Shown: in pieces, positions 1-3,000 of the stretch | Position numbering within the stretch: position 1 is the first letter of the stretch | Layout of the letters: each line of letters begins with the position of its first letter | Made by a program: the position numbers | Assembly (NCBI GenBank): GCA_018649825.1 | Contig: JABIHC010000026.1 | Span: 1 to 34,359 of the forward strand | Direction of reading: 5' to 3' | From: Methanobacteriota archaeon | GTDB lineage: Archaea > Thermoplasmatota > Poseidoniia > Poseidoniales > Poseidoniaceae | Length of the DNA stretch: 34,359 nt

Positions 1-3000
1 CCCAAAGGACTGGGATTTTGCCGTTGACCTTTCTCCTGATGAGATGATTGAATTATTTCCCGATGCGATACCCACGGGAGTTGCATTTGGAACTGTTACT
101 CTTCGAGCAGGTGATGATTTGATTGAAACTACTACTTTGCGTGGAGAGGGAACTTATGGTGATGGCCGACGACCTGATTCAGTTGAGTATAGTAAATCGC
201 TTGTTCTTGACTTATCGCGGCGTGATTTTACCTTCAATGCTATGGCTGTCGATGTTGCAAGAGGATTATTGCATGACCCTTTTGATGGCCAAATCGACTT
301 ACAAAACCGATGTCTTCGCGCAGTTGGTGATGCCAGGCTACGCTTAGGTGAAGACGGTTTGCGAGTAATTCGGGCCTACCGTTTTATGGACCTAGGCAAA
401 GGCAATTTATGTTCAGCTGATTTGCAATTGGGAAAATCCTTACTAGACCAACAACATATGTTGAGAATGGTTGCACCGGAAAGAATCTGGATCGAATTGA
501 GCAAAATACTAGCGGGATATAATGCAGGAGTAATCTTACATCGCATGGCGGTTGATGGGCTATTAAATCGCATATTGCCGAGTGAATGGGATGAAAATGA
601 TACTGCGATAATTGCACAAATGAGTTCACATCTGCAGGGCATTTCAATTGAAGCACGCCTTGCGCTACTACTCACAAATGCTGCGGCGGGCGGGCTTGAA
701 AAGGAATTGAAAAAATGCAAACTTTCTACCTCCCAAATACGCCGAGTATTAAACCTAAGGAGGTGGGTAAAAAGCCTCCCAATTGGGGAGCCAGAAGGGA
801 AGTTACGAGTTTATTCACATTTATTGGCATCTGATTTAGGTGAAGTAAAGCGTATGGATTTGGCATGGGCGGATGCTGGCGGCGAAGGTCCATCGTTAAC
901 AGAATGTATCGCATTTCACAAGCGCCTTTCTGAACTCAGTGTATCTCGGACAAATGGCGATTCTCTTGCCAGCGGCGAGTGGATTATGCAGCACACGAAA
1001 CTCTCGCCTGGGCCTCAGTTAGGTGCTCTAAAAAATTGGCTTCATCTAATTCAGATTGAGCGCAACCTCGGATTATTAGATGAAGTTGAAGAAGTTCTTT
1101 GCAGCCTTCCGTGGCAGCATGGAGATTGGAAACAATGGCCCAATCTCAGTCAATATTTCTAATGCCGTAGGCAATAATGTGAGTTCAAGACCACGAATCC
1201 TTTCAATAGTTTGCATAGAAAGTGAAACGAAACTGCTTCAAGTCATAAGGTAGTGGGCAGTTCATGTCAGCCACCCCATATGCCCAATGGTACAAGATGG
1301 GCGGGTACGGAATTGCCGCCACAATTGTCCTTTCTATTCTATTTGGAGAAGAAGGTGGTGAAAGAATTTCGAATATCGCCTGTTGTTTCTCAATATTCTC
1401 ATTTGTCGTAGGGGGCGTAATTCATTCAAGTGTTGCCTCTCAGGCTGCTACTGTGGCATTGGGTGGTGTTGCTGGAGCAAGCGGCGCTGCCTTGGCACAG
1501 ACTGAGAAAGGACAACAAATGGTCGTCGTTGCAGAGCAGCGGATGAATGATTTTTCAGCAAATGCAACCGAGGCTTGGCAAAATCGCTCAAATGCAAATG
1601 CCATGACCGAAGTTGATTCAAACGCGCTATTCAACAAGTTAGCAGGATTCATGGCAGAACAGGGATTCACTCCTGGCATGATGTTTACAAAGATGGACCT
1701 AGATGGAAATGACGTTTTAGATCCATTTGAATTACGCGAAGGCATCGCTAATCTAGGCGTTGCCGACATTCCCCCATGGCTGATGGGTTCAATAATCAAA
1801 GTTATTGATGAAAACGGCAATGAAAAAATAGACCGCCATGAATGGATGGCCTTGTTTGAAAAAATGGGCTGGGATGCACCTGAGCCCACCCTAGCAATTC
1901 TTTCCACTTCTTCAGATTTGATTACTATTTCTTTCACCGCACCGCCTTGGCCTGCAGAACGTGGCTCTTGGATTGGCCTTTACGGCCCACCTGAAAAGAA
2001 TTATTCGGATAATGAACCATATGAAGTTCATCCCGTCAATGGTCAAACTTCAGGTACAGTTGAGTTTGAGATATACGATGAAGGTGAATGGAAAATCAGA
2101 ATGTATGATTCTTCAGAGAGCAATTCAATGGAAGTCGCCATGGCATCGGCTCTTTCTTCTAGCCAATCCGACATTCTTACACAAGATGAAAATTCTGAAA
2201 CAGCCTCCGTAAGTGCAGGTAACGAAGAAATTCTAATAGATAACGATCCGTTAGATGTGCTAATCTCACTGATTCCACAAGAGCATCAGCAAATTGCTCA
2301 ACAAACAGTTGATAATTTACAGGCACAGATTTCAAATTCTACTGATGCTGAGGAAAAAGCAGAATTGCAGGGTGTTTTGATTGGGTTAATTGATGATTTG
2401 GCTCATCAACTGCCTCCGGAATCTTGGACGGCAATTGCAGCTGGTTCGGCAGCAGCAGTTGGTGCAGGGATAGTTATTGCAGCAAAGCAAAATGACGGCA
2501 CAATAACTGACGAGGAAGAAGGGCCGGAGGTGGAAGAACCCCCAACCGAGATTGTTGAAATTGAATCGGCAGTTCCAGATGAAAGTGAAGTCCCGGATGA
2601 GGTAGCAGAAATGTTCTCGGCAGTTCCAGATGATAATGAAAATGACGGCACAAGTGGATTGCTTGAAGATGGTGGAAGTGAAGCCATAGCCTCAGATAGT
2701 AGTTCGGAAGATGGAACACATTCGGGTCCTTCATTAGATGACTTATTTGCAGAAGTTGAAGCGGCTAGATTCATGTCACTACGGCAAGAAATATTAACGA
2801 CTTGGAATCAACCGATGCCAGTGGAAATTAGAGTTGAAAAGGTTGAGCGAAATATTGGATTTGACATAATGGCTGAACTCAAAGGAGGAATGAGCATTGT
2901 TGGAAGGAATGATGCAGGGCATCACATTTCTATTCGCTTACCACCTAGTCAGAATGACGAGGTTGAGGTGATTCGCAGCGGGGCTAAAGTTTCTGCCAGC

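Follow-up and report, generated by a model that had tools for sequence, protein, structure and literature searches.

Class II tRNA nucleotidyltransferase in place of the archaeal class I enzyme across Poseidoniales, with a likely offshoot in algae

Introduction

Which enzyme completes the 3' ends of tRNAs in Poseidoniales, and where did it come from? The question is raised by the first gene on a 34,359-nucleotide stretch of DNA (hereafter the window), contig JABIHC010000026.1 of the Poseidoniaceae assembly GCA_018649825.1 (contig C41 of genome G000 in our sample). The genome-wide survey's note on this locus read the gene as a bacterial-type class II CCA-adding enzyme that had replaced class I throughout the order, and presented this as a break with the rule that archaea use class I enzymes. 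As a novelty, the break has been pre-empted. A 2026 preprint (Cassidy et al., bioRxiv 10.64898/2026.05.29.728689) describes class II (CCA2) enzymes from Asgard, DPANN, and Euryarchaeota genomes, notes that class II is the sole CCA enzyme of several of the Euryarchaeota, and reports that the class II enzymes of Hodarchaeales and Heimdallarchaeaceae (two Heimdallarchaeia) build the full CCA end in vitro. PMC9258230 has likewise already tabulated the lack of class I: its Table S3 gives a class I frequency of 0.0 in 137 Poseidoniales and of 0.85 to 1.0 in the 15 other archaeal groups listed. That study uses the class I gene (COG1746) as a single-copy completeness marker, and the accessible portion of its main text is silent on the Poseidoniales absence.

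The accessible main text of the preprint contains none of the terms "Poseidon," "Thermoplasm," "Marine Group," or "MGII." Its Euryarchaeota CCA2 clades probably include Poseidoniales, and the sister order would match five class I genomes that it places near these clades. The swap described here is a further, well-documented case of the kind reported in 2026. In line with the survey's note, literature searches that paired the order's names (Poseidoniales, Marine Group II) with CCA terms returned no paper making this point, and the gene is not mentioned in the supplements of PMC4122925 (searchable files) and PMC6461757. Searches for an algal transfer or an exonuclease fusion also returned no paper. 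Three elements described below were not found in print: the evidence from an empty chromosomal site, the additional Thermoplasmatota clade, and, most notably, the nuclease-bearing algal copy.

Results

The gene at the start of the window. A 386-amino-acid reading frame, open at its 5' end, begins the window and contains a class II head domain (PF01743, E = 4e-24). Of the NCBIfam models it fits PRK13299, CCA tRNA nucleotidyltransferase, best, with 181 bits against a cut-off of 290 for this N-terminally cut protein. The gene and its neighbors are as follows.

2 to 1162, + strand: class II tRNA nucleotidyltransferase (predicted CCA-adding), with its 5' end on the overlapping contig C76 (- strand)
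1264 to 3078, + strand: EF-hand protein, the downstream neighbor, given as context only
3184 to 4894, both strands: GcvH (-) and acyl-CoA dehydrogenase (+), neighbors kept in both Poseidoniales families
4998 to 8026, + strand: Cdc6, ribosomal protein S6e, and eIF2-gamma, archaeal core genes that mark the contig as archaeal

The start of the window and the reverse strand of C76 overlap by exactly 141 nucleotides, and C76 provides the N terminus with the motif GGAVRE..DWD. In a genome of the same genus (G258), the whole gene lies on one contig (L041:6257-7585, - strand) and encodes about 443 amino acids. No second class II copy was detected in G000 by tblastn, in agreement with the survey's view of a single, split tRNA nucleotidyltransferase gene in this 85% complete genome. 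Because Cdc6, S6e, and eIF2-gamma share its contig and its GC content (0.45) is close to that of the genome (0.43), the gene is not a contaminant. Gene order around it was compared at 15 loci from both families, where acyl-CoA dehydrogenase recurs at 14, a PCMT gene at 13, and GcvH and a HEAT protein at 12 each. The acidic, membrane-associated EF-hand protein directly follows the CCA gene at 7 of the 15 loci, all in family f1.

ARAGORN made 33 tRNA calls in G000, one of them, with a 268-nucleotide intron, probably spurious. CCA is encoded in 11 of the remaining 32 genes; the other 21, close to the figure of about 20 given earlier, therefore need a CCA enzyme. As evidence of expression we considered three short contigs (151, 151, and 256 nucleotides, depth 4) that fall on the gene in two RNA libraries, and set them aside as too weak, with DNA carry-over uncontrolled.

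Class II is near-universal in Poseidoniales and class I is absent. We compared 301 genomes of the class, all of them metagenome assemblies: 256 from Poseidoniales and 45 from the sister families, which we take to be MGIII. PF01743 matched 253 of the 256 Poseidoniales genomes, G000 included, and none of the 45 sister genomes; the class I domain PF09249 showed the reverse pattern (0/256 and 41/45). The three Poseidoniales genomes in which the PF01743 search found no match are 80 to 82% complete. A phylum-wide sample gave class I in 232 of the 237 genomes from outside Poseidoniales and in none of the 64 from within the order; class II occurred in all 64 Poseidoniales and in 6 of the 237 others. 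TIGR03671, the full-length class I model, had no match at E ≤ 1 in any of five near-complete Poseidoniales genomes, two of them single-contig, and class I protein queries reached at best E = 0.36 in G000. Assignment of the window's gene to class I was accordingly rejected. Since the genomes are kin and not independent, these counts describe one event rather than 256. With class II as the sole CCA enzyme across a clade in which class I is absent, Poseidoniales show the pattern of CCA2-only replacement.

These larger samples bear out the earlier report of class II in all, and class I in none, of 61 Poseidoniales. That each genome has one gene held for 247 of 253, whereas six have two or three PF01743 matches. 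The two in G000 are the halves of the split gene; those in G097, G193, G215, G217, and G286 could reflect fragmented assembly, contamination, or an additional copy. That the sister order and other Thermoplasmatota carry class I but no class II stood for the sister families and failed for one genome of another class, G437. NCBI labels close relatives "CCA tRNA nucleotidyltransferase" of Ca. Poseidoniaceae or Thalassarchaeaceae archaea, and one named locus belongs to a Marine Group II euryarchaeote.

Several further matches were not counted as replacements. G455 and G466 have class I as well, and by our reading of the frames their class II genes, which carry an HD motif, sit among large-phage-like genes (G455:C54 and G466:C32); the G466 contig is at least 291 kb long and may be a provirus or a mis-binned giant phage. 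G417 and G486 have class I and weak partial class II matches, and the G433 match is 18 amino acids long and below the cut-off. Two weaker PF09249 matches each, possibly from split or duplicated class I genes, were seen in G301, G353, G363, G441, and G462 (family f6), in G357, G401, and G428 (family f20), and in G468.

The likely former site of class I. In the sister order, class I directly follows a run of Rieske, cytochrome b, FeS, ferredoxin, and membrane protein genes at 5 of 6 loci. The core of the Rieske-cytochrome b run is kept in Poseidoniales at 6 of 6 loci, each without class I. In G000 the ferredoxin and small membrane protein genes are in place and are followed by a metallophosphoesterase gene instead of class I. 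Together with the distribution, this supports the survey's contention that class I was lost and replaced. The class II gene, likely acquired before the last common ancestor of Poseidoniales, took up a new place in the chromosome. Class I probably disappeared from its position at the end of the Rieske/cytochrome b operon, which it still occupies in the sister order. Since the class II gene does not use the old class I site, the arrangement fits gain, a brief coexistence, and loss. The operon itself (Rieske, cytochrome b, FeS, CCG, ferredoxin) is conserved in both orders (L066:403-7310, which is G000:C142, and L060:1123-8420); in Poseidoniales its FeS and CCG genes are fused and encode one protein of about 920 to 940 amino acids.

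The nearest relatives belong to a second Thermoplasmatota lineage. Relatives were gathered by a search of 1.84 billion representatives and three homologue searches. Named bacteria came from a scan of 1/64 parts of the genome collection, which gave 79 bacterial loci, of which 41 were kept (at most five per class). They entered a 93-row core tree, a quick tree only. The full-length trees were built from selections of 44 and 54 rows, with the exonuclease insertion described below excised from seven algal rows. ESM Atlas returned just generic class II clusters (score 0.8).

The core tree held 41 named bacteria and the last tree 17 rows on the bacterial side, and in neither did a named bacterial group emerge as sister to the Poseidoniales enzymes; one long branch separates these enzymes from Spirochaetota, Myxococcota, Margulisbacteria, and Bacillota alike. 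The nearest relatives form a small clade of G437, P0532 (labeled "Thermoplasmata archaeon"), and the unlabeled P0063, P0531, and P0533, the last of which retains an HD-like motif. That the closest relatives of the Poseidoniales enzyme occur in a second Thermoplasmatota lineage is new here. G437 forms an order of one genome within a different Thermoplasmatota class; its class II gene lies at L067 (L095:14378-15670, G437:C207), and no class I match was found in its 85% complete genome. Class I has thus apparently been replaced in this lineage also. A chromosomal copy of the G437 type occurs in 1 of the 37 genomes of its class (the phage-like G455 left out), so that this apparent second loss of class I is represented by one incomplete genome.

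The survey's note held that the enzyme was taken from bacteria. An ultimately bacterial origin is the reading we infer, whereas the nearest relatives found are Thermoplasmatota, with the result that the direct donor to Poseidoniales may have been another archaeon. Within Poseidoniales the gene tree does not cleanly recover the two families, and its inner root shifted when taxa were added.

Many algal copies carry an inserted ERI-type exonuclease domain. In the first tree, a FastTree run that dropped three short rows, eleven long proteins grouped within the Poseidoniales clade, and later searches added further ones. The algal class II proteins are P0022, P0523, P0020, P0029, P0160 to P0164, P0328 to P0333, and L096:7839-10406. 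The labeled long proteins are eukaryotic: a gene model of Mesostigma viride and Bobra.0070s0090 of Botryococcus braunii, in four isoforms. A second EukProt transcript and three MMETSP transcripts are additional eukaryotic copies. The metagenome contig bearing one such gene is about 70% GC and gene-sparse, which would be in keeping with a green alga. A DEDDh exonuclease start motif lies inside the body of the enzyme in 19 of the 24 eukaryote-clade proteins checked, and the inserted domain resembles ERI3/ERI1 in sequence (E = 2e-27) and in predicted fold (TM 0.9 on the target). It looks degenerate in Mesostigma, and two Botryococcus isoforms diverge within the insertion as a retained intron might make them do. 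Chlamydomonas PAP4, PAP4-L, and PAP8 (PMC5727444) could be known names for this algal family; the supplement of that paper yielded no match to the Chlamydomonas PAP terms.

The Poseidoniales enzymes end in a Trp-rich tail that the algal proteins share. Against a profile built from Poseidoniales tails only, 22 of 23 algal proteins scored 41 to 97 bits and the G437 clade 34 to 39; about 300 other prokaryotic proteins scored at most 16.4, one more representative 18.4, and 80 viral proteins at most 7.6. Three full-length trees joined Poseidoniales and algae in one clade (support 100/99-100), with the algae forming a clade of their own (98-99/90-96). Several rows fail the composition test. In AU tests, run under LG+G4, a topology placing the algae with bacteria was rejected (p-AU = 1e-6). 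So was one uniting the enzymes of the archaeal side to the exclusion of the algae (p-AU = 3.6e-5, from a repeat of the test with P0533 on the archaeal side, its earlier bacterial label being without evidence); nesting of the algae among Thermoplasmatota-side enzymes is thus significant. The algae were nested within Poseidoniales in all maximum likelihood trees, but a clade of Poseidoniales alone was not significantly worse (p-AU = 0.17 and 0.36). The link between the Poseidoniales and algal enzymes is therefore firm and the direction from archaea to algae likely; the donor may have belonged to crown Poseidoniales.

We lean toward a relay in which a bacterial CCA enzyme entered Thermoplasmatota, replaced class I in the ancestor of Poseidoniales (apparently also in the G437 lineage), and passed from the Poseidoniales line to early algae, where it gained an ERI-type 3' exonuclease; the product would be a one-protein "trim and rebuild" enzyme for tRNA 3' ends. 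The age of early green algae is compatible with a Poseidoniales date of about 1.1 Ga. We consider it unlikely, though deserving of weight, that Poseidoniales instead took the enzyme from an alga or that both acquired it separately from an unsampled donor or virus. Such a history would accommodate the algae as sister to a Poseidoniales-only clade, which the AU tests tolerate, and the green-algal copies roughly track host relationships (Mesostigma lies beside Botryococcus and relatives), so they may be old. These alternatives sit poorly with the next relatives out, which are archaeal where labeled (G437 and P0532), with a gene that is near-universal in Poseidoniales and patchily found in eukaryotes, and with the two rejected topologies. 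A viral carrier was rejected: the P0162 query found no match in viral contigs, and the shared tail is present in none of 80 viral loci from the 27/64 parts scanned. Phage relatives were also rejected as carriers, with at most 35% identity among the 10 of 445 records listed.

Predicted activity. Returning to the archaeal enzyme, we surveyed 58 distinct Poseidoniales sequences from 69 loci for features by whose loss CC-adding, A-adding, or poly(A) enzymes are recognized (PMC7947759, PMC8563995, and bioRxiv 10.64898/2026.05.29.728689). Motif A (GGxVRD/E and DxD) is present within the class II head domain. The features of the window's gene, with their conservation across these sequences, are listed below.

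8 to 16, + strand: motif A, metal-binding DxD (here D-W-D); [DE]xD in 58/58
140 to 196, + strand: basic/acidic motif (R-G-E) and full-length flexible loop, in gap-free alignment with the Planococcus halocryophilus CCA enzyme; R-x-[E/D] in 57/58, loop spacing of 26 in 57/57 parsed
218 to 226, + strand: motif B, RRD; 58/58
350 to 364, + strand: motif D, amino acid template EDGLR (EDxxR); EDGLR in 43 and EDALR in 15 of 58
479 to 511, + strand: downstream motif ERxxxExxxhh, with E rather than the s of A-adding enzymes; 57/58, one truncated
944 to 1159, + strand: C-terminal tail with Trp-rich end, common to Poseidoniales enzymes and algal copies and the source of the Poseidoniales-only profile

The intact GGAVRE..DWD, RRD, and EDGLR motifs noted in the survey are thus found again, and all the CCA-specific motifs are present with them. 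At the position that we take as the third carboxylate, 6 of 58 sequences have Q. By analogy with known class II chemistry, DxD would bind two metals and the EDxxR side chains would template the two C residues followed by A; the switch from CTP to ATP would depend on the basic/acidic motif together with the flexible loop.

Other members of the family fit less well. Loss of the basic/acidic motif and flexible loop marks CC-only enzymes (PMC7947759), and a CC-adding enzyme, with that region deleted or degenerate and an xDxxR template, was rejected given that loop, motif, and EDxxR are all retained. An A-adding enzyme (sRxxxExxxhh, the downstream motif being defined in the preprint) was rejected on the E found in 57/58; the A-adding model NF041569 gave just 37 bits of 1440. 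A bacterial poly(A) polymerase (PcnB) was rejected as well, its signature, a pattern taken from the preprint's methods, occurring in 0/58 sequences; the HD motif too was found in 0/58. Genuine CCA enzymes head the PDB matches (P. halocryophilus, E = 9e-30; Geobacillus stearothermophilus, E = 2e-28), with poly(A) polymerase and CC- and A-adding structures at E ≥ 1e-10.

A partial activity (addition of CC or of A) or poly(A) synthesis, with an unrecognized second enzyme finishing the tRNA end, is very improbable. PF01743 does cover CC-, A-, CCA-adding, and poly(A) activities, and five genomes besides G000 have two or three matches; against this stand the intact loop, basic/acidic, RRD, EDxxR, and ERxxxE motifs and the missing polymerase signature, the single match in nearly all genomes, and the lack of class I by either model. 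Intact motifs, absence of class I, and a nearly always single copy make addition of the whole CCA end the best inference from sequence. Among the eukaryotic copies, the green-algal type keeps all CCA motifs, and several others have altered loops or templates. P0047, P0099, P0106, P0086, and P0148 show a changed loop, motif B (RRD changed), or template (SDGLR, NDGLR) and could be CC-adding or of altered specificity.

Contamination or mis-binning, with class I just missing from incomplete assemblies, might be suspected of metagenome-assembled genomes and of a gene split over two contigs in G000, but it can safely be dismissed: it is contradicted by the same pattern in single-contig genomes, by the archaeal genes on the contig, by a GC content of the gene close to that of the genome, by the gene order kept at 15 loci, and by class I still being visible in sister-order genomes down to 54% completeness. 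Taking these lines together, we conclude with high confidence that across Poseidoniales class I gave way to a class II enzyme of bacterial type, for which addition of the complete CCA end is predicted.

Discussion

The Poseidoniales enzyme most resembles the Bacillus-type class II CCA enzymes (P. halocryophilus 6IBP/6QY6, G. stearothermophilus 1MIV, and the PRK13299 family) in motifs A, B, and D, the basic/acidic motif, loop length, the downstream ER motif, and the lack of an HD domain. It differs from them in being archaeal, in its lineage-specific Trp-rich tail, and in standing apart from Bacillota in trees. Archaeal class I enzymes (PF09249, TIGR03671) have the same predicted job in the sister order and most other Thermoplasmatota, whereas the Poseidoniales enzyme is of a different class and class I occurs in none of the Poseidoniales searched. 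The CCA2 enzymes of Cassidy et al. (Hodarchaeales, Heimdallarchaeaceae, Pacearchaeota, and unnamed Euryarchaeota clades) are likewise bacterial-type class II enzymes serving as the sole CCA enzyme of an archaeal clade. The accessible portion of the preprint offers no Poseidoniales name and no Euryarchaeota donor tree, synteny, assay, or algal offshoot.

Cross-domain transfer of class II enzymes into eukaryotes has precedents in the holozoan aCCA from Alphaproteobacteria (PMC4538823) and in Acanthamoeba Ntr4 from bacteria (PMC7947759). The donors there are bacterial, whereas the algal copies have archaeal enzymes as their nearest relatives, and many of them carry an ERI-type exonuclease. The insertion is akin to the DEDDh 3'-5' exoribonucleases ERI1 and ERI3 (7K05, 2XRI, and 1W0H), except that the algal domain sits within the body of a CCA enzyme; the Poseidoniales enzymes have no exonuclease domain.

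In the archaea that are most abundant in the surface ocean, an essential translation enzyme has been swapped across domains and fixed order-wide, and the class II/class I pattern cleanly tells Poseidoniales apart from the sister order. A practical consequence is that COG1746, as a completeness marker, always counts as missing in Poseidoniales. As a break with dogma the swap comes second to the 2026 preprint, and the algal offshoot is the more surprising part: an archaeal-line enzyme with a nuclease insertion in green algae and other protists is a candidate new design for tRNA-end processing. The relay, if true, would be a passage of a translation gene from bacteria to archaea to eukaryotes that includes a rare archaea-to-alga transfer. 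If that transfer took place, it would also tie the relative ages of Poseidoniales, dated to about 1.1 Ga (PMC10877094), and green algae.
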